Source of the DNA: Bacillota bacterium
GTDB lineage: Bacteria > Bacillota > Clostridia > Acetivibrionales > DSM-1351
Direction: 5' to 3'
NCBI GenBank assembly: GCA_023433945.1
Contig: JAEYTP010000088.1
Location: 842-32,841 of the forward strand
DNA: 32,000 nucleotides
The stretch's first letter is position 1. Each line of letters begins with the position of its first letter. The notes below the pieces were generated by a model. The model did not search any database and was not told the origin of the DNA. It worked only from the letters and a program-made list of their open reading frames with translations. Of the stretch, positions 1,160 through 32,000 are shown one piece after another. Made by a program: the position numbers and the translations under genes.

Positions 1160-1170
1160 GAGAAATAAAC

Positions 1171-1980: not shown

Positions 1981-2013
1981 GTTTATCTTAGTGAGAGAAA
2001 GGAAGAAAAGTAC

Positions 2014-9700: not shown

Positions 9701-9756
9701 ATCAGCTGAAGGCAGATACTTATTATTAGTAATGTGAAAATTATCTTTTTAAGCAT
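6739..9756 (-). CDS. Secreted 1005-aa protein with central FG-GAP/VCBS-type repeats; flanking domains unassigned
   Basis: Signal peptide MLKKIIFTLLIISICLQLISPSIQPVGA. Five DxDxDG-like repeats: FNNDGLLDLICG, DIDNDKVADLVSG, DYNSDGSIELVVG, DDNNDGYPELYVG, DINKDGKKDLITG. Confidence 0.85.
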   Translation of the reverse strand: MLKKIIFTLLIISICLQLISPSIQPVGAQNQQNSSDVIRVCILHNGSSNSWTSTYQFLKQTLVANASVEEIEIKDGQTSLDLTSYDFIYPDPSIVNSKNSLQLKYQLMSFIYDGGTIFLENSLYNWLPKKVVGAKDFKEVPSFPDKINYPTVSGDLQNIQNVIKDFEISYRQFSAFKELKAKSYGMGIIPDTATTIASDGNTSLYSVNKYGKGFVFFTSALLPNNWYISGFDMKKESSEQLYFNNTVSSATSLLLDEGLVFASKQKYGYSLKKVLGPYGRPAMAYQNHFEVLSAVKEQSMEKWFSLTKKYNLIPSFSLSRGMYEWSDRYESVGYQLNSTTGSGIVISHDNYNSLYAPGEHAIVNDSWLNLAKSPIQDTYFNEMNVSHRAYPYATDFNNDGLLDLICGSSDGKFYYYQCISLKDGWQLKKVGPLKDANGHELKVNTYSAPILYDIDNDKVADLVSGCLDGNIYWFKGLKNNTYKPMGILVNAPVGEKLSAPEIADYNSDGSIELVVGTMSGNIYYTKGSLVSGKIKFGKLSKLKNSSGKDIHEGKNSAPKLFDDNNDGYPELYVGTADGYIVKYTNNKGHFSYSGYIDNIYSNDRGNKHFKYGNNVVPFFADINKDGKKDLITGRLEFGTFAVPIDSKYFPYRDELLSAIEFCNENGISIEPHVFTHKYKDSPDEKTELALHKAAFQSYGLGWDGLGTNQHTWKINFQDGLQTILNEYDSGLRWNSGFTPANSPVDPSGGTEYTWARPYYLADGLNTTSMLLFNASLNLTATNRKGYDDLMNSIYRWDMPVSVYLHIEYNMYKNPKSAESSASVIDSLRNKWDYNFMTETQYAMTMMAVLDNTINANSTVSDGKLHVSVEQNAPKDNNNIFNNTLGLKLELADKYKGASFTTDADIYQKSKDALYFGVNKPISISTGTGKTDNMHIMRVNLPVEISNSDDILSIDILDKGLQQLKIYAPQGIKLAGPSKEWNIEYIGSNIYVLTRYGGEATLDIYR

Positions 9757-10020: not shown

Positions 10021-10079
10021 TTTTAACTTAGAAAGCAGATATTGAACTTAGAAACTAAACTTTGAACTTGGATACTAAA
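10021..10079. repeat. Short tandem array, about 20-bp unit (t)tgaacttagaaa-like, 3 copies plus degenerate flanks
   Basis: ttttaacttagaaagcagata / ttgaacttagaaactaaac / tttgaacttggatactaaa. The last units contain the MCP stop codon (10055-10057) and final codons. Confidence 0.55.
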
Positions 10080-14434: not shown

Positions 14435-15946
14435 ATGATGGAAGGAAACAAAAAACTGACCAACGAAGTAGGAGCACCAATAGCTGACAACGAGAACTCT
14501 ATAACGGCTGGCCCAAGAGGCCCGGTGGTTATGCAGGATGTGTGGTTAATGGAAAAAATGGCACACTTTAATCGAGAGGTTATTCCAGAACGTCGTATGC
14601 ATGCAAAGGGTTGGGGTGCATATGGCAACCTTTCAGTTACAGGTGATATTTCAAAGTACACCAAAGCAAAGGTTCTACAACCTGGTACTAAAACAGACCT
14701 CTTTGTTCGTTTTTCGACTGTAGCTGGAGAACGAGGTGCTGCCGATGTAGAGCGTGATATACGTGGAGTTGCAGTCAAGTTTTATACTGAAGAGGGTAAC
14801 TGGGACCTTGTTGGAAACAATACCCCCACTTTTTTCATTCGTGATGTACATAACTTCTCAGACCTTAACAGAGCTGTAAAACGTGATCCGCGTACCGGTA
14901 TGCGTTCAGCGCAGAATAACTGGGATTTCTGGACACTGCTTCCGGAAACCTTCCACCAAAGAACTATTGTTATGTCAGATCGTGGCATACCAGCCTCCTT
15001 CCGTAATATGCATTTTTATGGGGAGCATACCTTCTCCTTCTATAATGATAAAAATGAGCGTGTTTGGTGCAAATTCCACTTCCATACACAGCAGGGAATT
15101 AAGAATTTCACAAATCAGGAAGCTGCTCAAATCAGTGGACAGGACAGGGAATACCATGGTAGAGATCTTTTTGATGCTATTGAACGAGGAGACTATCCAA
15201 AATGGACTATGTACGTTCAGATTATGACAGAGGAGCAGGCACATAATCACTATGAGAATCCTTTCGATATTACAAAAATCTGGCGTCACAAGGAATTCCC
15301 ACTGATAGAGGTAGGTGTCCTTGAACTAAACCGCAATCCTGAAAACTATTTTGCAGAGGTTGAGCAATCTGCTTTTTCACCTGCTCACGTTGTTCCAGGC
15401 ATCGGCTTTTCACCAGATAGATTTTTGCAAGGTAGACTTTTTGCTTATGGTGATGCCCAGAGATATAGACTTGGTGTTAATCATAATCATATACCCGTTA
15501 ACCGTGCTAAATGCGAAGTCAATGAGTATCATAGAGATGGTGCAATGCGCGTAGATGGAAACTATGGTAGGATGCCTGCATATTCTCCAAACAGTGAAGG
15601 CTATTGGACACCACAACCAGAAGTGGCGGAGCCACCACTAAAACTTGAAGGTGCTATGTACAGGTTTGATCCAAAGGATGATCCTACAGACGATAATTTC
15701 CGTGCAGGTGGGGAACTATATCGATTAATGACAGAAGATAAGCGTAGGCTATTAATAGAAAATACTGCTGCGGATATTGCCCCTGTAACAGACAACGTAA
15801 AATATCGTCATGCTGTACACTGTTATCTGGCTGATACTGAATACGGAGAACGTATTACAGCAGCAATGGGTCTAGATTTAGATAAAGTAAAAGAATTATC
15901 AAAGCTGGACAATAATGGACTGATTCAGGCAACATTGAAACCATAG
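14435..15946 (+). CDS. katA: Monofunctional heme catalase
   Basis: Distal-His signature [20 protein letters not shown] and proximal-Tyr signature [14 protein letters not shown], 503 aa. SD aaggagg. The start may be the second ATG at 14438. Confidence 0.95.
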
Positions 15947-18672: not shown

Positions 18673-19563
18673 ATGCATTTTACTCAGGCCAAGGGGATAT
18701 TATCATCAAGCAATGGAATGAATATGTACCGTGGTTGTACTCATGGTTGTATCTATTGTGACAGTAGAAGTAAATGCTATGCATTCACTCATGACTTCGA
18801 GGACATAGAAGTAAAACAAAATGCACCAGAGCTTTTAGAGAAAGCCCTTCGTTCAAAACGCAAGAAGTGTATGATTGGAACAGGTGCGATGTGTGATCCC
18901 TATATGCACTGTGAAGAAAGCGTAAGGCTGACAAGAAAGTGTCTGGGAATTATTGATGAATATAAATTTGGGCTCGCCATTCAAACAAAGTCAGACCTTA
19001 TATTGCGGGATTTAGACCTGCTGAAAAGTATCAATAAGAAGTCAAAGTGTGTAGTACAAATGACAATGACTACTTATGATGAAAGCTTGTGCAAAATAAT
19101 AGAGCCAAATGTATGCACAACCAAGAGAAGGTTTGAGGTGCTAGAGATATTAATGGACAATGATATCCCCACTGTTGTTTGGATATCTCCAATTTTGCCA
19201 TTTATTAATGATACAATAGATAACTTGGAGGGGATTTTAGGTTATTGCATTGCTGCAAAGGTTAAGGGGATTATCAACTTCGGATTTGGATTGACACTAA
19301 GGGAAGGGGATAGAGAATATTATTATATGAAATTAGATGAATACTTCCCTGGATTACGGTCTAAATATCACAAAAAATATGGGTATGCTTATGAGATAAA
19401 TAGTGATAATAACGCTAAACTACATCAACATCTGATTAGCACTTGTAAGAAGCATAATATTTTATGCGATCCGAATGAAGTTTTCTCATACCTTCATAAG
19501 TATCCTGATAATAATATTAATTACCAACTACCCCTGTTGGGCGAAAACAATGAATTCATATAA
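18673..19563 (+). CDS. Radical SAM protein, SplB/DNA-photolyase-like (COG1533-type)
   Basis: CTHGCIYCDS (CxxxCxxC) near the N-terminus, 296 aa, SD aggagg. Confidence 0.85.
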   Translation: MHFTQAKGILSSSNGMNMYRGCTHGCIYCDSRSKCYAFTHDFEDIEVKQNAPELLEKALRSKRKKCMIGTGAMCDPYMHCEESVRLTRKCLGIIDEYKFGLAIQTKSDLILRDLDLLKSINKKSKCVVQMTMTTYDESLCKIIEPNVCTTKRRFEVLEILMDNDIPTVVWISPILPFINDTIDNLEGILGYCIAAKVKGIINFGFGLTLREGDREYYYMKLDEYFPGLRSKYHKKYGYAYEINSDNNAKLHQHLISTCKKHNILCDPNEVFSYLHKYPDNNINYQLPLLGENNEFI

Positions 19564-19572
19564 AAAAATTAA

Positions 19573-19606
19573 GGGACTACTTTTTACAAGTAGCCCCCTT
19601 GTTTTT
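19573..19606. terminator. Bidirectional terminator between convergent genes
   Basis: gggactactt-tttac-aagtagcccc (one mismatch), flanked by aaaaaaa on the left and ttgttttt on the right. Confidence 0.75.
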
Positions 19607-19613
19607 CTTGGCA

Positions 19614-20378
19614 TTAAACACAGGTAAATGCTCCATCAACCACTATATCAGATCCCGTAGTAAAGCTCGCTGCGTCACTTGCAAGGTAAAGGACCGCTCC
19701 TTGAAGTTCCTCAGGAGTACCCATACGCTTAACTGGAGTGGACTGAACCCATGTAGGAATCCAATCTGTAGCCTTTAGTGTCATCTCGGTACCTATATAG
19801 CCAGGACTTATAGAGTTAACTCTCACATTATATTGTGCCCATTCTACGGCGAGTGATTTTGTTAGCATTATAACGCCAGCCTTAGATGCATTGTAGGCAC
19901 TCTGTGGCTGAGGTACATTAACAATATGACCTGACATTGATGCAGTATTTATAATGCAGCCTTTTTTGTTTTTAATCATTACACGCCCTACTGCCTGAGA
20001 GGTTAGAAATACTCCTGTCAAATTAACATCTATAACCTTCTTCCATTCTTCAAAAGACATTTCTTCAGCCTTAACATTTACACATATGCCTGCATTGTTA
20101 AAAGCGATATCTATTGTGCCAAATTCAGCTACTATAGTGTCAATCATTTTATTTACATCAACAGGATTTGTTACGTCAGCTTTTACGGCGAGGCTATTTA
20201 CTCCTAATAATTTAATCTCTCTTGAGGTTTTATCTGCCTCATGAATATCCATGTCAACTATTGCAACGTCAGCACCTGCTTGGGCTAATGCAATGGCAGC
20301 ACACTTGCCTATACCACGTGCTCCCCCCGTTACATATGCCTTTTTCCCCGTGAGATTAAATTGACTAATAATATCCAT
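19614..20378 (-). CDS. Short-chain dehydrogenase/reductase (classical SDR; sugar or polyol dehydrogenase-like)
   Basis: TGGARGIGK cofactor motif, NNAG, catalytic YNASK, 254 aa, SD aaggag. Confidence 0.9.
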   Translation of the reverse strand: MDIISQFNLTGKKAYVTGGARGIGKCAAIALAQAGADVAIVDMDIHEADKTSREIKLLGVNSLAVKADVTNPVDVNKMIDTIVAEFGTIDIAFNNAGICVNVKAEEMSFEEWKKVIDVNLTGVFLTSQAVGRVMIKNKKGCIINTASMSGHIVNVPQPQSAYNASKAGVIMLTKSLAVEWAQYNVRVNSISPGYIGTEMTLKATDWIPTWVQSTPVKRMGTPEELQGAVLYLASDAASFTTGSDIVVDGAFTCV

Positions 20379-20420
20379 AAAATCATCTCCTTATCAAATT
20401 AGATAGCAAAACACAGTTAG

Positions 20421-21299
20421 CTATGGTCTACGGCGGTCTAACATATATCTGGAGAAATTAAGTGCGGCTTTTGCATCCATGTCAAGCATTTCCTCATTTG
20501 CACCATTGCTAATATCTCTCCAAACCTTAATATTTGATCCAACTGTTCCGCCCATTTTGACAAAGGGTTCCATAACAATACTACCATTATAACATATATC
20601 TGATAGTGCTTCGCCAATCTCATTCCATGGAGTTCTTCCTCTGCCAGGTACTTTACGATTGCATTCTCCGGTATGTAAATGGCCAAGATATTGTCCAGCA
20701 GTTCTTATTGCTCCACCGATGCTATCTTCTTCAATATTCATATGAAAGGTGTCTAACATTACCTTTACATTACCATGACCAACTTCCTTTACAAAATCTA
20801 CACCTTCTTGGGCTGTATTGATTAAATAATTCTCAAATCTATTCAATACTTCAAGGCAGAAGTCAACGCCACAGGCCTCTGCTACCTTGGCAACCTCACG
20901 AACTCCTTGTACACTACGTTCCCAATCTCCCTTTTTGTCAATTGCTTTTGTATAATCAACAGGCCAATAGGAATATAAAGCCCCACCTATTAAGTGTACA
21001 TCTAACTTGTATAGACGTTTTAACAAATCTGTATAAAAGGCAATAGCATTTTTTCTAACAGCAGGATCAGACGAGGAAAGATTTTGGTCTGCCCTTGGGC
21101 CATGACCCACTGTAAGAGTTATCCCATTACTATTAGCACATGCTCTAAGCTCGCTAATCTGACTGTCACTGTAAAAAGGTATTGGTGAAGCAGCTATTTC
21201 AAGTATATCAAAGCCAAGTTTGGCAGCCTTCTCAATATAGTATTTGTAGTCTGCCTCCCATTCCTGCTCCCAATATGCGTAATAAATACCATATTTCAT
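20421..21299 (-). CDS. Ketose 3-epimerase (D-psicose/D-allulose 3-epimerase-like, xylose-isomerase-like TIM barrel)
   Basis: MKYGIYYAYWEQEWEADYKYYIEKAAKLGFDILEI. Metal and catalytic segments are CLEVLNRFEN, MLDTFHMNIEE, GHLHTGECNR and VMEPFV. From memory this is very close to the characterised Clostridium cellulolyticum DPEase; not verified. Confidence 0.85.
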   Translation of the reverse strand: MKYGIYYAYWEQEWEADYKYYIEKAAKLGFDILEIAASPIPFYSDSQISELRACANSNGITLTVGHGPRADQNLSSSDPAVRKNAIAFYTDLLKRLYKLDVHLIGGALYSYWPVDYTKAIDKKGDWERSVQGVREVAKVAEACGVDFCLEVLNRFENYLINTAQEGVDFVKEVGHGNVKVMLDTFHMNIEEDSIGGAIRTAGQYLGHLHTGECNRKVPGRGRTPWNEIGEALSDICYNGSIVMEPFVKMGGTVGSNIKVWRDISNGANEEMLDMDAKAALNFSRYMLDRRRP

Positions 21300-21321
21300 A
21301 TTAGCGTCCTCCTATAATGTT

Positions 21322-22698
21322 TTACTCAGCGGGTTCAAGTATTACATTAGCTTTTCTAAGAATACTACGAACCTCATTTACATCAACCATAGAAGGAGCA
21401 ATATTGTATTTCACTGCAAGTGCAGCCCCAACGCCAGCGGCTTCACCTATAGCCATGCAAGTTGGCATAACCCTTGCAGAGCTCATTACTACAGCATCCA
21501 AAGAAGCACACCTTCCGCTCAACATGAGGTTATCTATATCTACACTTACTGTACATCCATACGGAATACCATACGGTTTTATTCTTTTAACTATTGTACC
21601 TGCACCGTTGCCTTCGTGGATATCTATTATGTAGGATCCAAGTGCAACAGTATCTTCTGGAACTTCGCCCACCATTATTTGCGCCTCAGTCAACTCACAT
21701 AAACCTGCGAATCGGCGAGTTTCACGCACACCTAGGGAAGGATATATTTGAGTAATGTAGCAGTTCTCAAAACCTGGAACGTATTTTTTAAGAGTATCAA
21801 CTAACTTGGGTATCTGCAAGTGACCTTCAATCTCTGCGCGAGTCAAATCCAGAACATCACTACCATTAATACCAAGATGCCTTGTTGTATTTATATGTAC
21901 TTCCCCAGGTATTAAGCTTTTAATATATATAAGAGTATCTCTGTCAACAGGCAGCTCTCCTTTTTCCTTTAATTCGAGGAAAAGCTTACGCATGCCTACC
22001 ATAACGTGATGGTGTGGATTTGAACGGAGGAAATCCGCATTGTACTTTTCAAAGTCGCATTCTATGGTACTACATAAACGCATTTGTTCAGGATCACTTG
22101 CGATAAAATCTATTGTCTTGTCGGTATCTACGTTGCCTAAAGTAAACATAAGAGTTGGTGGCTGCAGTGCACCAGTATCTTTTTGGCCCATATTATAGGT
22201 AGCACCAGCTAAGTAAGCCATGTCACCGTCACCGCTTGCATCTATAAAGACTTTAGCATGAACCTCTATATAATAACCCTTACCAAAAAGTGTAACTGAC
22301 CTGATGCTACCATTATCTACATTTGTATTGATTACTTCGGTGTTCAAAAGTATATCAATACCTGCTGTAAGGCACATTTCAAATGCAACAACCTTAAAAA
22401 TTTCATGGTCGTAAAGTGTTACAGAGTTGTGCATGGGGCATGTATAATGATCGGTACAGGCATTGCGCTTTTTGAGTTCATCTACAAGTTCCTGAGCAAT
22501 ACCAGCGGTTACAGGCTTGCCATCTTTGTCGAGATATCCCAACAATGGTAAACCTATCGTTAAATTACCACCAAGATATCCGTTTTTTTCTACCATAAGC
22601 ACTTTTGCGCCATTTCTACTTGCTGCAATTGCTGCAGGAATTCCGCCTGGTCCACCGCCAATGACGACCACATCATAATTTTTTTGGAGGGTTTTCAT
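21322..22698 (-). CDS. FAD-dependent oxidoreductase (FAD_oxidored/PF12831-like), paralog B
   Basis: VVVIGGGPGGIPAAIAASRNGAKVLMVEKNGYLGGN dinucleotide fold, C-terminal RVMPTCMAIGEAAGVGAALA, 458 aa, SD aaggag. Confidence 0.85.
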   Translation of the reverse strand: MKTLQKNYDVVVIGGGPGGIPAAIAASRNGAKVLMVEKNGYLGGNLTIGLPLLGYLDKDGKPVTAGIAQELVDELKKRNACTDHYTCPMHNSVTLYDHEIFKVVAFEMCLTAGIDILLNTEVINTNVDNGSIRSVTLFGKGYYIEVHAKVFIDASGDGDMAYLAGATYNMGQKDTGALQPPTLMFTLGNVDTDKTIDFIASDPEQMRLCSTIECDFEKYNADFLRSNPHHHVMVGMRKLFLELKEKGELPVDRDTLIYIKSLIPGEVHINTTRHLGINGSDVLDLTRAEIEGHLQIPKLVDTLKKYVPGFENCYITQIYPSLGVRETRRFAGLCELTEAQIMVGEVPEDTVALGSYIIDIHEGNGAGTIVKRIKPYGIPYGCTVSVDIDNLMLSGRCASLDAVVMSSARVMPTCMAIGEAAGVGAALAVKYNIAPSMVDVNEVRSILRKANVILEPAE

Positions 22699-22746
22699 AG
22701 TTTTGTCTCCTTTGATAATATAATTTTTTTATTAATTAGTAGCTAA

Positions 22747-22900
22747 CTGCACCTCTACTAACATAGCTTTTTATAAACAAGCCTTTTATGGCTGCACCTT
22801 TACTAATACAGTTTTATAAACTAGTCTTTTATAGCTGCACCTTTACTAATATAGCTTTTTATAAAACTAGTCCTTGATGACTGCACCTTGATTGATAAGG
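22747..22900. repeat. Tandem array, 43-46-bp unit, 3 copies plus a partial copy inside the upstream CDS
   Basis: Units start with ctgcacc at 22747, 22792, 22835 and 22881. The third unit contains the real stop codon (22867-22869) of paralog A. Confidence 0.85.
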
Positions 22901-24240
22901 GTATTACGAAGATTAACAATATCTACATGCTCGGGGAGAACACCGCTTTTTTGCGCTATCGCAGCTGCAGTGCCAGCGGCCTGACCCATTGCAATGCATG
23001 CAGGCATAACACGATAGCTCGCTGCAGCCTCTGAGGAACCACATATGCTACGCCCTGCAACAAGCATATTATCGCAGTTCTCAGGAATCAGGCAACGATA
23101 TGGTATAGTGTAGTACTTGTCAACACAGGTAAATGTGACCCCACCACCTGTTGAGTTGTGAACATCAATGGCATATCCGAATGTACATATCGCATCATCA
23201 AAATGCTTACGAGATAGTATATCTTCCGCTGTAAGCTCATATTTGCCCACAATGTGTCTTGTTTCGCGAACACCAAGTGCAGTGGCTACTTGAATGAGTT
23301 GTATATTCTCGCAACCAGGGAGATATTTTTTCATGAAAGCAACAACTTCCTGTACTTGACGTCTACCTTCAATAAGAGCTTTGGTTATATCAGAAGTTTT
23401 TGTAGCATCAATATGTGCAATACGAGTGGTATTAATTTTCCACCGCCCAGAGACATTTTGTTCATAGTTTCCTAATTCATTGCGGTCAATTGTCCAGTCT
23501 CCGTTACGCTTTGCTTCGACTACATATTGAGCGAAACAATTAGCGGTGTGATTATCTAGGTTGGCTTTGTTGGCTTCTAACTCACCTAAGTATTTCTCGC
23601 GGTCGATATTTCCAACTTCGAAGAAAAGGGTAGTAGGTTGCATAACACCAGTATCCTTTTGACCAAGCCAGGTAGGTACACCCGCCAGATATGCAACATC
23701 AGCATCGCCAGTACAATCTATGTATACCCTTGCACGAATTGCTGCAATACCTTCTTTCATATGAACTATAACATGCTCTATCTTTCCATCATTAGTAATA
23801 CAATCGGTAACTTGAACGTTGTAAAGTATTTGTGCACCTGATTCTAGAACCATTTCTTCCATTACGACTGCAAGAACCTCCGATTGATATGGAGTAACAT
23901 GTCTATGGCTTGCCATATAATATGAGGAGTAAGAGGTCATGCCTTCAATCTTGGATGGATGAATAGCACCCCCTCGAGCTTCGGTCCGAATACATAACTC
24001 ATCAAATATACCCTTGACAAGCTGTTCCTGTGCATCGTTATCATAGCAGGTCATAAATGGTCCAACGAGACCTGTTGTAGCCATACCTCCTAACATGCTT
24101 AAACGCTCAATCAGTAATGTTTTTGCTCCGTTTCGAGCTGCTGCTACAGCTGCTCCGAAGCCAGCAGTACCTCCACCAATAACAAGGACTTCTGTTTCTA
24201 TTACATTTTTAATGATTTTTTTATATTGAATCTCGCTCAC
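22867..24240 (-). CDS. FAD-dependent oxidoreductase (FAD_oxidored/PF12831-like), paralog A
   Basis: VLVIGGGTAGFGAAVAAARNGAKTLLIERLSMLGGM, C-terminal RVMPACIAMGQAAGTAAAIA, 457 aa. GTG start with SD aggagg 6 nt upstream. Confidence 0.85.
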   Translation of the reverse strand: MSEIQYKKIIKNVIETEVLVIGGGTAGFGAAVAAARNGAKTLLIERLSMLGGMATTGLVGPFMTCYDNDAQEQLVKGIFDELCIRTEARGGAIHPSKIEGMTSYSSYYMASHRHVTPYQSEVLAVVMEEMVLESGAQILYNVQVTDCITNDGKIEHVIVHMKEGIAAIRARVYIDCTGDADVAYLAGVPTWLGQKDTGVMQPTTLFFEVGNIDREKYLGELEANKANLDNHTANCFAQYVVEAKRNGDWTIDRNELGNYEQNVSGRWKINTTRIAHIDATKTSDITKALIEGRRQVQEVVAFMKKYLPGCENIQLIQVATALGVRETRHIVGKYELTAEDILSRKHFDDAICTFGYAIDVHNSTGGGVTFTCVDKYYTIPYRCLIPENCDNMLVAGRSICGSSEAAASYRVMPACIAMGQAAGTAAAIAQKSGVLPEHVDIVNLRNTLINQGAVIKD

Positions 24241-24508
24241 GACTATCCTCCTAAAAATGAAACGGTTTATGTCACTAAATTAATCCAATTATAATTTAAT
24301 GCATTTTAAAATTACTGCTAAAATGGAGAATTAAATTTCAATTGATAAATATGATAAAAGAACTATATTTTCTTTTAATATAGCATGTAGCACATTGAAG
24401 TCAACAGAACAGAAAAATGAGTGAAGGATAGTGATAGTTTTTAAACAAATAGTACATAAAATTTAATCTCTATAAATAAGAAATTAGTAATATTGTTGAA
24501 AAATATAC

Positions 24509-24535
24509 TTGACAGATAAAATATTTTTGTATAAT
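24509..24535 (+). promoter_or_regulatory. Candidate sigma-A promoter for the response-regulator operon
   Basis: TTGACA (24509-24514), then an extended -10 TGTATAAT (24528-24535). The spacer is only 15 nt, so confidence is modest. It implies a leader of about 210 nt. Confidence 0.4.
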
Positions 24536-24749
24536 TTGTTAAGTGTTGCTAATCATATATTTACATAATGATACCATATTTTGTAAACTAAATAACCCTC
24601 AATGACTACATGTAATCCATAGCACTAGCTTAGCATGGTTTTATAGCTATCCCACTAATGGTATGGCATTTATAGAATAAGCAATTATCATAAACTTATA
24701 ACGCTATATATAGCTCAAATAGTAATACAACAAAAAGGAGGAATATTTT

Positions 24750-26369
24750 ATGTATAAGGCTATTATTGTTGATGATGAAGACCTAGTGCGTCAAGGACTT
24801 AAGAAACACTTTGATTGGAGTGCTTACAATATTCAAATAGTTGCCGATTTACCAGATGGAGAAAAGGCATTAAACTTTGTAAAGGAAAACCATATTGATT
24901 TAGTGCTTACCGATGTCCTTATGCCGTATATGGATGGAATAACATTAGCCAAAAATCTACGGGAGCTCTATCCAGATATAAAGATAATTTTCGTCAGTGG
25001 GCATGACGATATAGCATTTCTAAAGAATGCACTTAAGGTTGATGCTATAGATTATATCCTTAAATCAATAGACTTAGATGAGCTCAAAGAAACCGTCAGT
25101 CGAGTGGTCAACATTATGGATATGGAGAATAGAAGCAAAAAAAACCTTGCTGATATGGAAAACCTCCTAAATGAAAGCTTTCCTCTTTTGCAAGAACGTT
25201 TTTTTATAACAATGATTCGTGATGACGTAGAAAATCCAGAAATATTGAAGGAACGAATAGCTTTTTTGAATTTACCTCTGTATGACGAAATGCACTACTG
25301 CGTACTGGTTATTCAAGTACAAAGTATATACAGCACATTTTATACTCTATCAGAACGTGAACGACAACTTTTATCTTTGCAAATTCAAGACGAATGCAGG
25401 AATGTAGGTAAGCTTTATGGCGATACAATTTGTTTTGAAAATAAGCAGGGTGAATACATAATGATACTTTCCTTATTAGAGGATGAGTATGAAGATACTA
25501 TCCTTGAGGTCTCCGAGAAATTAAACAAACGACTTAATGTGAGTATGAATCTTAAAGTAGCGATTGGTATTAGTGAAAGATTTAAAGGACTTGAAAATAT
25601 AAAGATATCCTACGATAATGCTTCAAATGCTATAAGTAAACGCTACTTACTCGATAGCGAACTAGCTATCTCCATTGATAAATACGAAATGGACGAAAGC
25701 CTTAAAGAATTTAAGGAAAGAGCCGAAAAGAGTTTGCAGGAGTGCTTGAGCCATGGTAGTGCCGAGCAGGTTATAGAGGTACTTAATGAGCTTTTTAGTA
25801 TAATTAAGGAGAAGTTTCATAGTGATGAAGAGCAAAATTTGCTGATTTACTTACTACTCCTTCCAACACGTATAGTAACTGATGTAATGATAAACAAAAA
25901 AAGTGACTACTCCAATCAACGTATGATCTTAGAGAAGTTTTTATGCTGTTCGGATTATGAAGAACAGTGTCTTATGATTCAAAAGCTTTATACTGAGGTA
26001 GCTTCCCTCATGAGAAATATGAGTAAAACATATTCTCACACTATAATTAATCAAGTCCGTAAAACGATTGAGGAACATTTTAAGGAGCAGATATCTATAA
26101 CTACGTTAGCAAAAGATGTCTATTTAACACCGACATATTTATGCGTATTATTTAAACAAGTTACTGGTACTACTATAAATGATTACTTAACTAACACAAG
26201 GCTTGAAAAGGCAAAGAAGCTCTTATCAGACCCGTACATAAAATTATATGATGTATGTTATGAAGTGGGATACCTTTCTCCTAGCTATTTTTCACGCTTG
26301 TTTAAGAAATATACAGGACTCTCACCTAGTGAATATAGGAATATTGCAATTTCATCAGCAGAGAAATAG
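24750..26369 (+). CDS. Two-component response regulator with AraC-type HTH output (YesN-like)
   Basis: Receiver domain MYKAIIVDDE...LVLTDVLMPYMDG and C-terminal AraC HTH GYLSPSYFSRLFKKYTGLSPSEYR, 539 aa, SD aaggagg. Confidence 0.92.
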   Translation: MYKAIIVDDEDLVRQGLKKHFDWSAYNIQIVADLPDGEKALNFVKENHIDLVLTDVLMPYMDGITLAKNLRELYPDIKIIFVSGHDDIAFLKNALKVDAIDYILKSIDLDELKETVSRVVNIMDMENRSKKNLADMENLLNESFPLLQERFFITMIRDDVENPEILKERIAFLNLPLYDEMHYCVLVIQVQSIYSTFYTLSERERQLLSLQIQDECRNVGKLYGDTICFENKQGEYIMILSLLEDEYEDTILEVSEKLNKRLNVSMNLKVAIGISERFKGLENIKISYDNASNAISKRYLLDSELAISIDKYEMDESLKEFKERAEKSLQECLSHGSAEQVIEVLNELFSIIKEKFHSDEEQNLLIYLLLLPTRIVTDVMINKKSDYSNQRMILEKFLCCSDYEEQCLMIQKLYTEVASLMRNMSKTYSHTIINQVRKTIEEHFKEQISITTLAKDVYLTPTYLCVLFKQVTGTTINDYLTNTRLEKAKKLLSDPYIKLYDVCYEVGYLSPSYFSRLFKKYTGLSPSEYRNIAISSAEK

Positions 26370-26467
26370 TATTTTACTGAAAAATTTATTATACTGTTCA
26401 GAGAATTTATTATACTGTTAAGAAAAAGTTATTTACTGCTCAGATAGTTATATTTACAGAAACAGGT
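26369..26467. repeat. Tandem array, about 21-bp unit atttattatactgtt-like, about 5 degenerate copies
   Basis: atttattatactgttcagaga / atttattatactgttaagaaaa / agttatttactgctcagat / agttatatttacagaaacagg. It fills the spacer from the RR stop to the HK RBS. Confidence 0.6.
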
Positions 26468-26483
26468 GGGAAAGGAAATAGTT

Positions 26484-28295
26484 ATGAATAAAGTTAACTT
26501 AAAAGATAGACTTTTTAAAAATATTCTTTATAGTGATAATATGCGTTTATCAAAAAGAGCAATTGCTCTTTTTGCTTTTACAGTATTTATACCGCTCACT
26601 CTTATCGTAATTATGTATTCCAATCACTCATCAAATATTATTGAAAATGAGCTGTCAAATAATATGAGATTAGCGGTTAACCAGATCAAAAGCAACCTGG
26701 ATTACCGGTTTGAACAAATATCTGAAAGCGCCCTTTCTATTCTTAGTACGGCTTATCCGTATATTAGAAGTGGAAGCACGGATGTTCAAACACAGCTAGA
26801 GGAATATGCCGAACTTAAATCTCTGGTTTCAGCTTACGAAGGAAAACATATGATTAGTAAAGTTAGACTATATGTACCTTCCGGTAAAATATATGCAAAT
26901 CAACAGGATACATTCTATTCTTTGCCTGAGCTTACGATGGAAAACAGTGAGAATCTAAAGCGGGGAGTAGTTTGGTTGAAGACCTATGGAGCGCGTATAT
27001 ATGATGGAACAGGATTAATTAATGTTATATCTTGCCGAATGACAATTTCGAGTAAAAAAAATTATGATGAAATAGCTAGCGTACTACAATTAGATATAGA
27101 AGAAACCAAGCTTAGTAAAATATTTTCTGCAGGCATAAGCAGTGATGAGGAGATTTACTTGGTAGATTCAACAGGGTATATAATTTCTCACCCCGATTCA
27201 AGCTTGATTGGTAAAGAGGGCCTTACACCAACCGAATTAAAAGCTGTGCTGGAAAATGAGACAGGACATCTGAGTGGAAAGATGAGTAATAATTCTGATC
27301 TAGTGGCATTTTCAAAGTTGAGTGTACCAAACTGGTATTTAATTATGAGATTGCCAGCTACTACAGTATACGGAACGGATATTTATTCATTTGATGTGAT
27401 GCGCGCTGTGCTGATTTTAGCCGTTATCTTAGTTTTTGTTGTCTCACTAATAATCATATATTCTAGTATAGTTGAAAATACTGTGAAACGAATAAATAAT
27501 GCTATTATGGTACTGAAAAATGAGGGAATTGATCAAGCTGATAATGTTGCCACACTAAACGACAAAAATAATAAGTCTCTTGCATTATTAGAGAATAATG
27601 CAAACCAGTTAGTTATTACTATAAAAAAATTGATGGAAGAGTCATATGAAGCCAAATTAAAAGCCCGTGATTTTCAGTTGAAAGCTCTACAGGCACAAAT
27701 AAATCCTCATTTTCTATACAATACTCTTGATGCTATAAAATGGATGATATTGGAGGATTATAAACAAGATAGTATATGGATGATAAATGCTTTTTCAAGG
27801 TATTTCCGTCTAAGCTTAAGCAAAGGAAGGGATGTTGTTACCCTTAGAGATGAATTAGAATTAATTGAGTCGTATATTGGAATTATGCAAAAAAGGTTTA
27901 GTAATATATCAACCATAGAAATAAATATTGATGAAGATCTGAAAAATTGCCTTATTCCCAAGCTATCACTGCAGCCACTTGTTGAGAATGCACTCAATCA
28001 TGGAATTCTTCATAGCCAAAACAATGATGGTAGCCTTACTATAGCTGCAAGAGAAGAAGAGGAGAGGTTGATTATTGTCATCAAGGATAATGGTAATGGG
28101 ATGAGTCAACAGCAGCTTGACAACATTCTTGAGCCAAGTAATAGCAGTAACACCAAGGGCTATGGCCTTGGAAATGTAGACGAAAGACTTAAGCTGTTTG
28201 GAGGAGAAGACTGTGGGCTTAGTATAAGTTCTGAAATTAATGTGGGTACAACTGTTACCATTTCATTACCTATAAAATATATGCAACACGAATAA
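26484..28295 (+). CDS. Sensor histidine kinase (YesM-like; double-TM sensor, HAMP, His_kinase, HATPase_c)
   Basis: H-box QINPHFLYNTLD and ATPase motifs LVENALNHG, DNGNGM, GYGLGNV. ATG 26484 is preferred over GTG 26466 because of SD gggaaagga spacing. Confidence 0.9.
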   Translation: MNKVNLKDRLFKNILYSDNMRLSKRAIALFAFTVFIPLTLIVIMYSNHSSNIIENELSNNMRLAVNQIKSNLDYRFEQISESALSILSTAYPYIRSGSTDVQTQLEEYAELKSLVSAYEGKHMISKVRLYVPSGKIYANQQDTFYSLPELTMENSENLKRGVVWLKTYGARIYDGTGLINVISCRMTISSKKNYDEIASVLQLDIEETKLSKIFSAGISSDEEIYLVDSTGYIISHPDSSLIGKEGLTPTELKAVLENETGHLSGKMSNNSDLVAFSKLSVPNWYLIMRLPATTVYGTDIYSFDVMRAVLILAVILVFVVSLIIIYSSIVENTVKRINNAIMVLKNEGIDQADNVATLNDKNNKSLALLENNANQLVITIKKLMEESYEAKLKARDFQLKALQAQINPHFLYNTLDAIKWMILEDYKQDSIWMINAFSRYFRLSLSKGRDVVTLRDELELIESYIGIMQKRFSNISTIEINIDEDLKNCLIPKLSLQPLVENALNHGILHSQNNDGSLTIAAREEEERLIIVIKDNGNGMSQQQLDNILEPSNSSNTKGYGLGNVDERLKLFGGEDCGLSISSEINVGTTVTISLPIKYMQHE

Positions 28296-28301
28296 TTTTA
28301 T

Positions 28302-28470
28302 CTACATAATATCTACAAAAGACTCCACATAAGGATGAACATAACTCTACATAAGATACTACAAAAACTCAACATAAGATATTACAAAAAACTCAGCATA
28401 AGATACTATAAAAGACTCCACATAAGACTGTACATAAAACTCTACATAAGATTCCTGCATAAGATGAATG
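28302..28470. repeat. Tandem array, 22-24-bp unit c[tac][ag]cataagata ctacaaaaact, 7 copies
   Basis: Units start at 28302, 28325, 28347, 28370, 28394, 28418 and 28442. The first unit starts 7 nt after the HK stop codon. There is an internal sub-period of about 12 bp. Confidence 0.85.
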
Positions 28471-28503
28471 TTAGTCTACATATATAGCAAGGAAATAGCT
28501 TTT

Positions 28504-28550
28504 AAGAGACTGATTCAATAGCTAGATATGGCTATTAATTCAGTCTCTTT
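28504..28550 (+). terminator. Long imperfect hairpin, likely terminator of the two-component operon
   Basis: aagagactgattcaatagc-tagatatg-gctattaattcagtctctt followed by tatat. Confidence 0.5.
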
Positions 28551-28796
28551 ATATATACCATTTTGGGCATTATGCAATAAATTCCAGTGATGGTTGATAC
28601 TATTTTTATGCAAAAATAACAGTTTTGGATAAGAAATCAGAAGATTGAGTCATTCTACTTATGATTTTTGTGTGCTAAGATAGGAGCATAGAAAAGATTA
28701 AACTTAATTGAAAGCTTTCAAAAGTCTATATTTCTCATTATTTCAAAAGAAATATTATGTTAAGGGTTTTTACTCACTATTTCGGAGGAAAATGCT

Positions 28797-29765
28797 ATGA
28801 AAATGTTTGCTTTAAAACCAAAAGCAAAAAATGAACTACAATCGCACTCTAAATTAGGAGCATATTTGAAGGATCATTATCTCTTATATTTAATGTTGCT
28901 CCCTGGACTGTTTTTCTTGATAGTCTATAAGTTTCTACCACTCTACGGTATTACAATTGCATTCAAAGATTATAGTATTTTTGCAGGAACCAATCCGCTA
29001 GATGCAATAGCAAAAAGCGAATGGGTAGGATTAGAGCATTTCGAACGCTTATTTGCAAGTTCTGCATTTGTAAAAGTACTTCTAAATACTCTTATTATTA
29101 ATGGGTACAAGATTTTGTTCTTATTTCCAATTCCTATAATATGTGCCATTTTACTCAATGAAATTAGAAATAAGGCATATCGCAAGCTGGCACAGACAGC
29201 AATATACGTTCCATATTTCTTCTCCTGGGTTGTTACATTCGGTATTTTTTATTCATTATTAGGTACCTATGGAATTGTTAACACTGGGTTAGCAGCCTTT
29301 GGCTTTGAAAGAATCAGCTTCTTTTCGGACACAAACGTATTCCGTGGCTTATTAGTCTTTACTGAGGGTTGGAAAGAGATTGGATGGAATACAGTTATTT
29401 ATTTGGCAGCAATAACTGGTATTGATATTTCGCTCTATGAAGCAGCTAGAGTGGATGGTGCATCCAAACTGCGCCAAATCTGGCATGTGACATTGCCTGG
29501 AATTGCATCTACTATAGTACTTATGCTCATTCTAAAGGTTGGATACATATTGGATACCGGTTTTGAGCAGATCCTTGTATTCTATAACGCAACAGTTTAT
29601 GATGTAGCCGATGTAATCCAAACTTATGTTTACCGTATGGGGTTGGGTCAATCAGATTTTGCATTAGGTACTGCTCTTGGTTTATTTAATTCTGTTGTAG
29701 CATTTATCTTAATAGTAGGTTCAAATGCTATTAGTAAAAAATTGCTTCATAGAAGTATCTGGTAA
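28797..29765 (+). CDS. Carbohydrate ABC transporter permease (LplB/YteP-like)
   Basis: 322 aa, EAA loop EAARVDGASKLRQIWHVTLPG, SD ggagg. Confidence 0.9.
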   Translation: MKMFALKPKAKNELQSHSKLGAYLKDHYLLYLMLLPGLFFLIVYKFLPLYGITIAFKDYSIFAGTNPLDAIAKSEWVGLEHFERLFASSAFVKVLLNTLIINGYKILFLFPIPIICAILLNEIRNKAYRKLAQTAIYVPYFFSWVVTFGIFYSLLGTYGIVNTGLAAFGFERISFFSDTNVFRGLLVFTEGWKEIGWNTVIYLAAITGIDISLYEAARVDGASKLRQIWHVTLPGIASTIVLMLILKVGYILDTGFEQILVFYNATVYDVADVIQTYVYRMGLGQSDFALGTALGLFNSVVAFILIVGSNAISKKLLHRSIW

Positions 29766-29801
29766 TAGAAACGAAAGTATATTCTGCTTGAGGTGAAAAT
29801 T

Positions 29802-30698
29802 ATGTTAAACAAAAAGAAAAACACGGGTATTCCACTAGAAGCAAGTGAAAAATCTATGATAGTAACTTCTTATATTATTATGACAATATTTGCATTGTGT
29901 GCCATACTTCCAATCTTGCATGTATTATCTAAGGCATTCAGCAGTGCATCAGCTGTTACTTCGGGAGCCGTATTGTTTTGGCCAATTGATATACAGTTTG
30001 AGACTATAATATATGTTTTAAAAGAAACAACTTTTATGAATTCTCTTAAGAACACCGTGATTGTTACTGTTGTAGGTACAATCATCAGTATGCTAGTAAC
30101 AATCACTACTGCCTACCCACTATCAAAGCCATCATTTAAAGGGCGAAAGTTTTTTATAATGCTATACATAATTAGTATGGTATTCTTTGGTGGAATAGTT
30201 CCTGCATATATGGTTGTTCGTACCCTTGGCATTATGGATACATTTGCGGCATTGATTCTTCCGTTTTTTATAGTACATTTTAATATGTTTATTGTTAAAA
30301 ACTATTTTGAGGGTCTACCTGAAAGTATTGAAGAATCAGCAAAAATTGATGGCGCAAGTGACATTAAAATCCTTGTATACATTGTATGTCCAATGTCTAC
30401 TCCAGTTTTAGCAACAGTGGCGATGTTATATGCTGTAAATTACTGGAACAATTACTTCCATGCAGTAATGTATACAAACAGTACTGACATGCAGACATTA
30501 CAGTTATTTATCTATAACACTATCAGTAATACTCAAACAATTGTTGAACGTCTAGTAGCAGGTAATTATGCCAATGTTTCTATTGATGGTATTATAGCTG
30601 CGGTGGTTGTTCTTTCGTTAATTCCTATAGTAGCCGTATACCCATTAGTTCAGAGATATATGGTTCAAGGTATAACCATTGGCTCAGTTAAGGGCTAA
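29802..30698 (+). CDS. Carbohydrate ABC transporter permease (LplC/YtcP-like)
   Basis: EAA loop ESAKIDGASDIKILVYIVCP. ATG 29802 with SD gaggtg 6 nt upstream is preferred over the GTG 29793 used in the track. Confidence 0.9.
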   Translation: MLNKKKNTGIPLEASEKSMIVTSYIIMTIFALCAILPILHVLSKAFSSASAVTSGAVLFWPIDIQFETIIYVLKETTFMNSLKNTVIVTVVGTIISMLVTITTAYPLSKPSFKGRKFFIMLYIISMVFFGGIVPAYMVVRTLGIMDTFAALILPFFIVHFNMFIVKNYFEGLPESIEESAKIDGASDIKILVYIVCPMSTPVLATVAMLYAVNYWNNYFHAVMYTNSTDMQTLQLFIYNTISNTQTIVERLVAGNYANVSIDGIIAAVVVLSLIPIVAVYPLVQRYMVQGITIGSVKG

Positions 30699-30764
30699 TG
30701 AAGTGGTCTAATCCTATGTAATTTATCGGAAACGATAAAAATATAAAAAAGAGGAAGGGATATT

Positions 30765-32000
30765 ATGAAGAAGATTTTTGTAACATTTCTTGCAGCAATG
30801 ATGGTTGTTTCTAGTTTAGCGGGTTGTGGTAGTGATAGTAAAACCCCAAGTGATACCTCAACTTCACAAGCAAGCAGCTCAGGAGGAGCAAAGGCCCTCG
30901 ACGGTGAGAAGCCAACCCTTAAGTACCTTGGATACAATGTAAGCTTTGATCCTAACACTGACGGCATGGCAGCAGTTTATGAAGAGACGACAGGTTATAA
31001 GGTAAACTATAACGTACTTCCAGCTGAAAATGCAAATGAAAAGCTGCTTATGGAAGTCGCATCTGGCGCAGATTATGACGTACTTCAGGTAAGTGTTTCA
31101 CAGTTCCAGACATTACTTTCCCAAGGCGCATTGATGCCTCTTACTGATTTACTTAATGAGTATGGCCAGGACATTCTAAAGGGTGTAAATGAGGTTACTT
31201 GGAAGGCGTGCTCGGATGAGAAGGGGGATATCTACGGTATTCCTTACAAATATCCATACCCAACTGAGATAGGTGCCTTTATGGTAGCTAGAATGGACCT
31301 GTTAAAAGCAGCTGGAATAAATGAAATTCCTACTACAATTGACGAGTTCTACAACACACTTGTTGAGCTTAAGAAGTTCTATGGTGACAAATACATCATA
31401 TTTACCGGTCCTTTCCGTGTTGCTTCAGAAGGTTCTGTTAACTGGGATATACCACAGAGTATAACCTCTGCCTTTGGTATATACAACGACTGGATGGTTG
31501 ATGAAAATGGCAAAGTTTTCTATATGACTGAACATGAGAATTTCCCTAAATTAATTGAATTTATGCAAAAACTCTCAAATGAAGGACTTATTGATCGTGA
31601 CTGGGCAGTTAATAACACAACTACAGTAAATGAAAAGTTCTCTGCTGGAAAAGCAATTATTGCAGCTTCTAACCGTACAGGTGTTGCAGTTACAACGCCT
31701 ATAATGACAGGCAAAGATGGTCTTGGCCTCAAGTATGAAGATTTAGGCTATATTAGTGCACTGTCAGGTTCTGATGGTACTTGTAAATACATGAAGACTG
31801 AGGCAATTAATCAGATGACTTGCATACTTAAGAGTTCTAAGAATGCTGAGCATGCTATTAACTGGATTAATGTTAAACAACAAAATCAGCTTTACCTCAA
31901 TATTGGAGTTGAAGGTACACACTTTACATATGATGCAGATGGTTCCATCAAACCAATTAACCCTATCTTCTCAGAAGAACGTGGTAATTCATACTGGTAT
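30765..32000 (+). CDS. Extracellular solute-binding lipoprotein (LplA-like, large family-1 SBP), 3' end beyond window
   Basis: Hand translation gives MKKIFVTFLAAMMVVSSLAGCGSDSK... with lipobox LAGC. The frame is open for 412 codons to the window edge. SD gaggaaggg. It is absent from the ORF track because it has no stop. Confidence 0.88.
   Translation, partial: MKKIFVTFLAAMMVVSSLAGCGSDSKTPSDTSTSQASSSGGAKALDGEKPTLKYLGYNVSFDPNTDGMAAVYEETTGYKVNYNVLPAENANEKLLMEVASGADYDVLQVSVSQFQTLLSQGALMPLTDLLNEYGQDILKGVNEVTWKACSDEKGDIYGIPYKYPYPTEIGAFMVARMDLLKAAGINEIPTTIDEFYNTLVELKKFYGDKYIIFTGPFRVASEGSVNWDIPQSITSAFGIYNDWMVDENGKVFYMTEHENFPKLIEFMQKLSNEGLIDRDWAVNNTTTVNEKFSAGKAIIAASNRTGVAVTTPIMTGKDGLGLKYEDLGYISALSGSDGTCKYMKTEAINQMTCILKSSKNAEHAINWINVKQQNQLYLNIGVEGTHFTYDADGSIKPINPIFSEERGNSYWY

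Follow-up and report, generated by a model that had tools for sequence, protein, structure and literature searches.

The subject of this analysis is a sugar-type gene locus without a glycoside hydrolase (GH) gene in a bacterial genome from the Clostridia (assembly GCA_023433945.1, contig JAEYTP010000088.1), of which a stretch of 32,000 nucleotides, here called the window, was analysed. According to an open reading frame (ORF) scan and family searches, positions 19614-32000 of the window hold nine genes of a locus that spans about 21.5 kb and has 16 genes in all. The host is a Ruminiclostridium species. Already known are loci with a two-component system (TCS) and an LplABC-type importer, the D-psicose 3-epimerase (DPEase) of Clostridium cellulolyticum and the hydrolase-free redox catabolism of glycosides. 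What is new is that a large flavoenzyme family without an assigned reaction, PF12831, occurs in several copies where hydrolases or Gfo/Idh/MocA enzymes normally sit, and that it does so beside a DPEase. We propose, with a confidence about evenly divided between acceptance and doubt, that the locus encodes an inducible, hydrolase-free redox pathway leading from an imported carbohydrate to fructose-6-phosphate; in this proposal we infer the flavoenzyme chemistry, the substrate, the order of the steps and the co-regulation of the two operons.

Organisation and extent of the locus

Read along the forward strand, the locus comprises the genes SDR (short-chain dehydrogenase/reductase), DPEase, FAD-B and FAD-A (flavoenzymes of PF12831) on the minus strand and, divergently, those of the response regulator (RR) and the histidine kinase (HK), LplB, LplC, LplA, FAD-C, FAD-D, FAD-E, ADH1, ADH2, ADH3 (alcohol dehydrogenases, ADHs) and PfkB. 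The window ends within the gene of the solute-binding protein (SBP) LplA, and the locus was extended past this end with a 459-kb metagenome contig from ENA, on which it is designated L001 (loci used for comparison carry such numbers throughout). Positions 18797-32000 of the window agree with the first 13,204 bases of L001 without a mismatch, so both represent the same contig. On L001, the SBP gene is followed at its 3' side by three PF12831 genes (FAD-C, FAD-D, FAD-E), three Zn-dependent medium-chain dehydrogenase genes and a PfkB kinase gene. No GH, phosphorylase or lyase is encoded among the 16 genes of the locus, including the 10 kb of its own contig past the window, and flavoenzymes and dehydrogenases account for nine of the ten enzyme genes, the kinase being counted apart.

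A preliminary description of the same DNA had listed the genes of this part of the window, all of which were found again at their positions (Table 1), and had characterised the locus as a sugar locus lacking a GH, which is true for the window and for the 10 kb beyond it. It had spoken of two FAD paralogs; the locus actually holds five. It had also considered that a GH directly 3' of the SBP gene might explain the locus conventionally; this gene was looked for on the contig itself, and PF12831 genes, Zn-dependent ADH genes and the PfkB gene were found in its place, so that the conventional explanation finds no footing there. A GH just past the window edge is ruled out by the gene table of L001 and by the orthologous locus of Ruminiclostridium cellulolyticum H10, which ends at the kinase. 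In Bacillus and Paenibacillus, YesMN/LplABC oligosaccharide loci carry GHs.

Table 1 Features of the locus in the window and of a related gene cluster. Positions refer to the window unless an L number precedes them
Feature	Position	Strand	Domains and remarks
Terminator-like hairpin	19571-19599	minus	12-bp stem plus T-run immediately behind the stop codon of the SDR gene; ends the minus-strand operon
SDR, 254 aa, polyol/ketose-reductase-like	19614-20378	minus	PF13561 (E 1e-65), PF00106
Ketose 3-epimerase, 292 aa	20421-21299	minus	PF01261; NCBIfam NF051856
FAD-B, PF12831 flavoenzyme, 458 aa, cytoplasmic	21322-22698	minus	PF12831 1-416/416, E 1.1e-117
FAD-A, PF12831 flavoenzyme, 457 aa, cytoplasmic	22867-24240	minus	PF12831 1-416/416, E 1.5e-126; GTG start after AGGAGG
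Divergent intergenic region	24241-24749		509 bp, AT-rich, between two divergent start codons; promoters for both operons presumed
YesN-type response regulator, 539 aa	24750-26369	plus	REC + GGDEF_2-like + AraC helix-turn-helix; PF00072, PF17853, PF12833, PF00165
YesM-type sensor histidine kinase	26466-28295	plus	dCache_1 + PF06580 + HATPase_c
LplB/YteP-type ABC permease, 322 aa	28797-29765	plus	PF00528 (BPD_transp_1)
LplC-type ABC permease, 298 aa	29802-30698	plus	PF00528 (BPD_transp_1)
LplA/LipO-type lipoprotein SBP, 525 aa when complete	30765-32000 (cut by window end)	plus	PF01547/PF13416 (SBP_bac_1), lipobox LAGC
FAD-A ortholog cluster	L005:4695-14978 (also L006-L009, L090)		Conserved, gut Firmicutes

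The PF12831 flavoenzymes

FAD-A and FAD-B share 34% identity, and FAD-C, FAD-D and FAD-E, assigned to PF12831 by precomputed Pfam matches, are 31-42% identical to these two and among themselves. The GGGxxG dinucleotide-binding motif is visible in all five paralogs, and since the N-terminus of each starts with this Rossmann motif, all of them are predicted to be cytoplasmic. Common to the five proteins are E121, K162, Q201-P202, N270, R325-E326-T327, D359-x-H361, R397 and R410, which by virtue of this invariance are candidate active-site residues. Matches of the locus flavoenzymes to PF01266 are weak, confined to the N-terminus and far below the PF12831 score, which sets these proteins apart from amadoriases and opine oxidases.

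When all PDB sequences were searched with phmmer and with profiles, PF12831 proteins were matched only over their first 50-180 residues, i.e. over the dinucleotide-binding fold. An AlphaFold (AF2) model of FAD-A (pLDDT 89.6) was compared with the PDB by Foldseek, and the best TM-scores were 0.46-0.47, obtained with geranylgeranyl reductase, flavin monooxygenases, fumarate reductases and ketosteroid dehydrogenase. No structural relative that reveals the flavoenzyme chemistry was thus obtained, as the Foldseek matches are generic two-domain flavoproteins with a TM-score of at most 0.47. NCBIfam contains no model specific to PF12831 proteins, searches of the PDB, NCBIfam and the literature found no family member with a demonstrated function in carbohydrate or other metabolism, and in the literature PF12831 (FAD_oxidored) was met only in flavoproteome inventories.

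The family is large, with 4,968 clusters (50% identity) at E <= 1e-30 and 14,575 at E <= 1e-10. Among 138 neighbours of PF12831 genes from 52 metagenomic loci, the commonest were CUT1 permeases and SBPs, regulators of the LacI, AraC and GntR types, PF01261 proteins, SDRs, ROK proteins and NanE. In L056, L109, L131 and L170, a PF12831 gene lies directly beside one or two genes for PF01261 barrels, and L109 additionally contains a periplasmic pectate lyase. In one close homolog the PF12831 protein is fused to a CBM9-like domain, and forms of 620-635 aa carry DUF7402.

In the preliminary description, the adjacency of FAD-A and FAD-B had been taken to suggest a heteromer or two sequential oxidations. 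The heteromer finds no support: FAD-A orthologs occur without FAD-B in L005-L009 and L090, and FAD-B orthologs without FAD-A in L131 and L172. As each of the two is thus found alone, an obligate A/B heteromer is unlikely, and in this obligate form the idea was rejected.

The ketose 3-epimerase, the dehydrogenases and the kinase

The epimerase scores 473.9 bits against the NCBIfam equivalog model for D-psicose 3-epimerase (NF051856, cut-off 300) over the entire model (1-287/287) and matches the structures of the C. cellulolyticum DPEase (3VNI, 3VNK, 7E9W) with an E-value of 1e-177. Its identity to Ccel_0941 is 87.5%, and the resemblance to the C. cellulolyticum enzyme that the preliminary description had pointed out is borne out by about 88% full-length identity to 3VNI/3VNK. 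The residues E150, D183, H209 and E244 (metal binding or catalysis) as well as E156, H186 and R215 (substrate), in the numbering of the window protein, do not vary among the 23 homologs that were aligned. By these sequence comparisons, the protein is an ortholog of the biotechnologically used C. cellulolyticum D-psicose 3-epimerase, and its activity is predicted by orthology. A weak NCBIfam match to the fructoselysine 3-epimerase FrlC was also obtained, and YcjR (PDB 6WN6) is detectable as a relative (E 8.5e-15). Literature searches returned no description of the natural pathway or the genomic context of the C. cellulolyticum DPEase.

All four enzymes of the minus-strand operon matched the families expected for them, namely PF12831 (twice), PF01261 and PF13561. 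Each gene is preceded by a Shine-Dalgarno sequence of the GGAG/AGGAGG type, in agreement with the good ribosome-binding sites reported before. The tight spacing reported with them applies to the gaps between FAD-B and the epimerase gene (22 bp) and between the latter and the SDR gene (42 bp), but not to the 168 bp between FAD-A and FAD-B. The closest relatives of the SDR with solved structures are carbonyl reductases, a putative polyol dehydrogenase, NADP-mannitol dehydrogenases and galactitol dehydrogenase. The three ADHs of the locus resemble threonine, sorbitol, idonate and scyllo-inosose dehydrogenases, and the PfkB kinase scores best against fructokinase. Judged from these similarities, the Zn-dependent ADHs, the SDR, the epimerase and the fructokinase-like kinase fit a recognisable polyol/keto-sugar/ketohexose funnel toward the phosphorylation of D-fructose. 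The numbers of FAD and NAD(P)-dependent dehydrogenase genes, which stand at about 1:1 in the loci compared, are a further point in favour of such a funnel.

A census of the DPEase family covered the 80 loci among the matches listed (L010-L089), which derive from 59 GTDB genomes. An adjacent PF12831 gene is present in L056 only, and L059 has one about 7 kb away. The notion that DPEase and PF12831 form a general pair was rejected on this basis; the near-absence of PF12831 from these 80 loci means that the combination of DPEase and flavoenzyme is specific to few lineages. In L011, L072, L080 and L086, DPEase recurs together with an SDR and several Zn-dependent ADHs without flavoenzymes, and the three look like a separable polyol/ketose module. 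In the locus L056 (L056:283-13047, Lachnospiraceae), PF12831 and a ketose 3-epimerase come together a second time, in another arrangement. Besides close orthologs of LplB and LplC it encodes a ROK protein, FGGY kinases, a serine hydrolase of PF00144 and two PF12831 proteins of 617-633 aa, one with a sub-threshold DUF7402 match; on its divergent side are the genes of an epimerase of the DPEase family, a class II aldolase and a further FGGY kinase.

Regulation and transport

The regulator combines a receiver domain with an AraC-type helix-turn-helix and lies beside a kinase with Cache, PF06580 and HATPase domains, as is typical of YesMN-type systems. The importer has the composition of LplABC-type (CUT1) systems, i.e. 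two BPD_transp_1 permeases and a lipoprotein of the SBP_bac_1 family of at least about 500 aa. In public sources, the orthologs go by the names LplB, YteP, 'aldouronate transport permease', LipO and YesN (JGI); because of these names the labels YesMN-type and LplABC-type are fair, and the assignment made in the preliminary description agrees with them and with the domain content. In a public gene call, the kinase has 603 aa and starts at position 26484. A protein identical to the LplC-type permease is recorded in 23 contigs. The complete SBP gene is found at L001:11969-13546, and the similarity of its product to solved oligosaccharide SBPs is weak. An ABC ATPase gene was not seen in any gene table of the locus (L001, H10).

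No convincing operator common to the divergent promoter region and that of the transporter genes was detected; the weak matches found (12 of 14 positions) are inconsistently arranged, and a shared operator was dropped as a candidate. The segment at about 28600-28690, which is conserved as far as H10, probably serves the transporter operon as promoter/operator. The tandem repeat ATATTACAAAAAACTCAACATAAG (period 24/48, positions 28301-28465) directly follows the stop codon of the kinase gene and precedes a hairpin at about 28505-28550; it was rejected as a regulator site, as near-identical strains (L174, L175, L177) differ in the number of copies and H10 lacks the repeat altogether. A 21-bp repeat, AAAATTTATTATACTGTTCAG, is present in three copies at positions 26381-26444, within the 96 bp that separate the regulator gene from the kinase gene.

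Conservation of the locus

One of three more distant orthologous loci is L093 (bioreactor metagenome, 49% GC), whose products are identical to those of the window locus by 75% (FAD-A), 81% (FAD-C), 80% (FAD-D), 69% (FAD-E), 76% (ADH1), 65% (RR), 77-82% (permeases), 74% (SBP) and 64% (SDR), the SDR gene lying within the plus-strand operon. The corresponding values for L099 (56% GC) are 63% (SBP), 70% (FAD-C) and 53% (FAD-D), and those for L170/L171 (65% GC) are 76% (ADH1), 64% (FAD-B), 65-72% (permeases), 53% (SBP), 62% (FAD-C) and 52% (epimerase). L170/L171 contain at least five PF12831 genes and four Zn-dependent ADH genes, and the public collection has their anchor protein in the index of 202 blocks. 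The FAD-B orthologs of L170 and L131 are 64-67% identical to FAD-B.

L093, L099 and L170 all retain the TCS and the importer along with several PF12831 genes; Zn-dependent ADHs are present in L093 and L170 and a PF01261 barrel in L170, and no GH was seen in these three loci. Overall, four to six flavoenzyme genes are kept across orthologous loci with GC contents of 37-65%. Because L093, L099 and L170 keep sensor, importer and PF12831 genes, in several cases together with Zn-dependent ADHs or SDRs and a PF01261 barrel, the association of sensor, LplABC importer and several PF12831 genes is conserved across very different genomes, while order and paralog set vary. Of the neighbourhood conservation that the preliminary description had put up for examination, the link between PF12831, PF01261, dehydrogenases and YesMN-LplABC thus stands over the whole range of 37-65% GC, whereas the exact block of four genes does not, since H10 lacks the SDR and FAD-A orthologs of 65-67% identity lie in a cluster of another kind (see below).

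In addition, L093 (15412-21195) and L099 (8459-9961) encode Cys-type sulfatases (CxPxR, no signal peptide) in the same operon as PF12831 genes, L093 together with a radical-SAM/SPASM maturase (anaerobic sulfatase-maturating enzyme, anSME). Since the SBPs are 63-74% identical, the scaffold transported by L093 and L099 is probably the same as that of the window locus, and the sulfatases suggest that it is sulfated in those lineages.

In R. cellulolyticum H10, the orthologous locus extends from Ccel_0941 (DPEase) to Ccel_0954 (PfkB), as placed by accession order; the next gene is agrB, and the locus therefore ends at the kinase. No GH is encoded in Ccel_0941-0954. The position of Ccel_0941 adjoins FAD-B and FAD-A as in the window locus, FAD-A is 91% identical to Ccel_0943, and the SBP is the ortholog of Ccel_0948. 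The H10 locus has two ADHs compared with three in the window locus, and no SDR or SDR remnant was found in it. Among the searchable papers, no main text mentions Ccel_0930-0949 apart from Ccel_0941.

Published RNA-seq data for this strain are available as normalised transcript abundances (Xu et al. 2013, Supplementary Table S2; PMC3656788). With glucose, cellobiose, xylose, cellulose, xylan or corn stover as substrate, the values for Ccel_0941-0951 lie between 0 and about 0.7, and those for the two ADH genes and the kinase gene do not exceed 3.2; the table gives ordinary genes values of several units up to hundreds (PMC3656788). The H10 locus is thus transcriptionally silent on the usual plant-cell-wall substrates, and the inducer must therefore be something else.

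Proposed pathway and alternative explanations

In the pathway that we propose, the membrane-bound sensor kinase would detect an extracellular carbohydrate and the AraC-type regulator would switch on both operons. The LplABC-type importer would take up the compound, probably a glycoside or a small oligosaccharide, which may be sulfated in some relatives. Processing in the cytoplasm would proceed without a GH: the five PF12831 enzymes would act on sugar moieties, presumably by oxidation of CH-OH groups to keto-sugars or keto-glycosides or by redox-assisted bond cleavage, and as the upstream half of the pathway would make or release intermediates from an oligosaccharide-type import. The resulting keto-sugars, ketoses and polyols would be interconverted by the Zn-dependent and SDR dehydrogenases, the ketose 3-epimerase would turn 3-epimeric ketoses into D-fructose, and the PfkB kinase would yield fructose-6-phosphate. 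We commit ourselves to an action of the flavoenzymes on sugar moieties by analogy with the 3-keto routes that depend on Gfo/Idh/MocA or GMC enzymes and with YcjQRS. In favour of such an action are the sugar-type neighbours of PF12831 genes, their recurrent adjacency to PF01261 barrels, the CBM9-like fusion and the DUF7402 forms, and the sulfatase and anSME genes within the operons of L093 and L099. More specifically, PF12831 might be a new class of carbohydrate-active flavoenzymes that take over the task of GHs and open or cleave glycosidic or sulfated-sugar bonds of imported oligosaccharides by flavin-mediated redox chemistry, each paralog serving one linkage or sugar, with the epimerase fixing the stereochemistry of the product en route to fructose; this version we consider speculative and rather unlikely.

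Several observations weigh against the proposed pathway. A PF12831 reaction or solved structure was found neither in the PDB nor in NCBIfam or the literature, and the flavoenzyme chemistry is therefore a guess. The locus encodes no partner protein or electron acceptor of the flavoenzymes, and the hosts are presumed strict anaerobes. A GH encoded elsewhere in the genome may act in trans. The neighbour censuses rest on crude ORF calls and on the loci among the matches listed. The DPEase family is usually accompanied by CUT2 monosaccharide ABC systems, L-fucose-isomerase-family (FucI) proteins, FGGY or PfkB kinases, SDRs and ADHs, and there are hints that many 'psicose epimerases' serve the catabolism of rare aldoses or deoxy-sugars. 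Finally, in Solobacterium and other gut Firmicutes, FAD-A orthologs (65-67% identity) belong to another cluster, which has neither an epimerase nor an ABC importer. This L005-type cluster comprises a ROK/NagC-like regulator, a secondary transporter with 11 transmembrane segments, a 715-aa hydantoinase/caprolactamase-alpha-like ATPase, a 195-aa protein with a HEYYH (HExxH) motif, the flavoenzyme, a GDSL hydrolase, a Zn-dependent ADH and a glyoxalase-fold protein as well as, in one lineage, a fructokinase-like PfkB. Flavoenzyme, Zn-dependent ADH and fructokinase-like kinase are common to it and the window locus; because of its extra genes, this context suggests a small, possibly nitrogen-containing (amide) substrate and not an oligosaccharide.

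The strongest alternative is a funnel for free rare sugars or polyols in which no glycosidic bond is cleaved, an explanation that we consider rather unlikely. Imported hexitols or rare hexoses would be converted by the flavoenzymes (aldose to osone or alditol to aldose) and by the Zn-dependent ADHs and the SDR to ketohexoses, DPEase would direct psicose (or tagatose or sorbose) toward fructose, and PfkB would phosphorylate the latter. Every non-flavin enzyme of the locus is of the polyol/ketose type, and free ketohexoses are DPEase substrates according to the passage of PMC8576529 that refers to its reference 23. The recurrence of the DPEase family in monosaccharide clusters with Zn-dependent ADH and SDR (L011, L072, L080, L086) and the minimal conserved FAD-A module, composed of flavoenzyme, Zn-dependent ADH and fructokinase-like PfkB, point in the same direction. 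However, LplABC/YesMN modules with SBPs of about 525 aa typically import oligosaccharides, and monosaccharide DPEase loci use CUT2 systems. Five flavoenzymes are also hard to justify when free polyols are already handled by NAD-dependent dehydrogenases, and the sulfatases and anSME of orthologous loci as well as the CBM9 fusion suggest glycan-like substrates.

Improbable in our view is an Amadori- or opine-like deglycation, in which 1-amino-1-deoxy-ketose (or -alditol) conjugates would undergo oxidative C-N cleavage by the flavoenzymes and yield an osone, the ADHs and the SDR would reduce the osone to fructose, the epimerase would act on 3-epimers in the manner of FrlC and PfkB would phosphorylate fructose. 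Flavoenzyme cleavage of C-N bonds to glucosone is known amadoriase chemistry, FrlC belongs to the same fold family as the epimerase and gives the weak NCBIfam match mentioned above, and the locus, which is free of GHs, closes with a fructokinase-like kinase. The FAD-A ortholog cluster, moreover, pairs the HExxH protein, the lactamase-type ATPase, the GDSL hydrolase and the glyoxalase-fold protein with a fructokinase-like kinase. Known amadoriases and opine oxidases, however, belong to PF01266 and not to PF12831, and the locus encodes no PF01266-dominated protein. Sulfatases, CBM9 fusion, pectate-lyase neighbour and sugar-type regulators point to glycans, the Ruminiclostridium locus contains no amino-acid or peptide genes, and an oxidase-type reaction would be awkward in an anaerobe.

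Just as improbable is a reverse flow of electrons, with the flavoenzymes acting as reductases (e.g. ene-reductases) on unsaturated or dicarbonyl sugar derivatives, using electrons from NAD(P)H and serving in part as a fermentative sink, while the ADHs oxidise. The best structural neighbours, i.e. geranylgeranyl reductase, fumarate reductases and ketosteroid dehydrogenases, would agree with this, although at a TM-score of only about 0.46 and with a likeness that is generic to two-domain flavoproteins. The anaerobic hosts, the acceptor not being encoded and the invariance of R325, R397, R410, D359 and H361 in all five paralogs are also in favour, but the locus has no lyase that forms unsaturated sugars, and PF12831 genes repeatedly stand with PF01261 barrels, a partnership familiar above all from keto-sugar chemistry. 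Still less probable is an ordinary oligosaccharide locus with hydrolases encoded elsewhere and flavoenzymes in an accessory tailoring or detoxifying role: CUT1 loci often depend on genes in trans, the gene tables of the locus contain no ABC ATPase and the inspection covered one locus per genome, but the absence of GHs recurs in the orthologous loci that keep the flavoenzyme genes across the whole GC range, and the enzyme genes of the locus are flavoenzyme and dehydrogenase genes with a single exception.

Comparison with known systems

Non-hydrolytic glycoside catabolism by a Gfo/Idh/MocA or GMC oxidoreductase and a xylose-isomerase-fold protein, without a Koshland-type glycosidase, has been described (bioRxiv 10.1101/2024.03.25.586180); examples are the AL/BT2156-2160 clusters of gut bacteria, DgpA/DgpBC, CarA/CarBC, the Agrobacterium O-glycoside beta-eliminase and the levoglucosan Lgd enzymes. 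Like these systems, the window locus pairs oxidoreductases with a PF01261-fold protein and re-reducing dehydrogenases and has no glycosidase. Unlike them, its oxidoreductases are five paralogous PF12831 flavoproteins, its enzymes are all cytoplasmic, its end is a fructokinase-like kinase and its PF01261 protein is classed by its equivalog match as a ketose 3-epimerase, not as a lyase or hydratase. None of the 16 genes encodes a Gfo/Idh/MocA (PF01408) or GMC protein, the oxidoreductase types of 3-keto-glycoside routes. A Gfo/Idh/MocA gene (positions 2014-3303, 429 aa) does occur 16 kb upstream, where it follows two permease genes and forms the tail of a separate sugar ABC operon (233-3303).

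The E. coli ycj pathway edits the stereochemistry of glycosides, YcjR being a 3-keto-D-glucoside 4-epimerase and YcjS a dehydrogenase. The ycj genes resemble the window locus in that a Zn-dependent ADH (YcjQ), a PF01261 epimerase (YcjR) and a second reductase (YcjS) stand beside a CUT1 importer; they differ from it by phosphorylases and the lack of flavoenzymes, and the window epimerase is a DPEase ortholog (88%) far from YcjR. With C. cellulolyticum DPEase (Ccel_0941) the window epimerase shares about 88% identity, the functional residues and the neighbours; no difference in the enzyme itself was noted, and the novelty lies in the genomic context. The YesMN/LplABC loci of Bacillus and Paenibacillus (for aldouronate and rhamnogalacturonan oligomers) have the same layout of regulator, kinase, permeases and large lipoprotein SBP, but the window locus is free of GHs in all its genes. 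Fructosamine catabolism (frl) has in common with it a PF01261-fold epimerase and a fructose-type kinase. The frl pathway consists of a kinase and a deglycase without flavoenzymes, while flavin-dependent cleavage is a known deglycation chemistry; the window locus contains no FrlB or FrlD equivalog.

Neighbouring genes

A radical SAM gene (18673-19563) is convergent with the SDR gene and probably unrelated to the locus; it was rejected as a sulfatase maturase, being of the PA0069/Rv2578c type without a SPASM domain. At 14435-15946, about 3.7 kb from the locus, a full-length haem catalase (PF00199, E 1e-180) is encoded in this presumed strict anaerobe; a catalase was not seen in that part of the flank of the H10 locus which was read. 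Further upstream, a 1005-aa FG-GAP-repeat protein (6739-9756) lies beside a methyl-accepting chemotaxis protein (10055-11797).

Significance

The DPEase of C. cellulolyticum is a workhorse of allulose production, and the locus gives it a concrete context consisting of a sensor, an importer, ten enzymes and one kinase. The occurrence of PF12831 genes beside sugar importers, PF01261 barrels, polyol dehydrogenases, sulfatases and CBM-like domains makes the family a candidate for a new type of carbohydrate-processing enzyme in anaerobes. If this is true, the set of non-hydrolytic routes for glycan breakdown would grow, and genes so far labelled only 'FAD-dependent oxidoreductase' in Firmicutes from gut, digester and soil would be explained. 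The locus could thus show the natural role of both DPEase and the PF12831 family.

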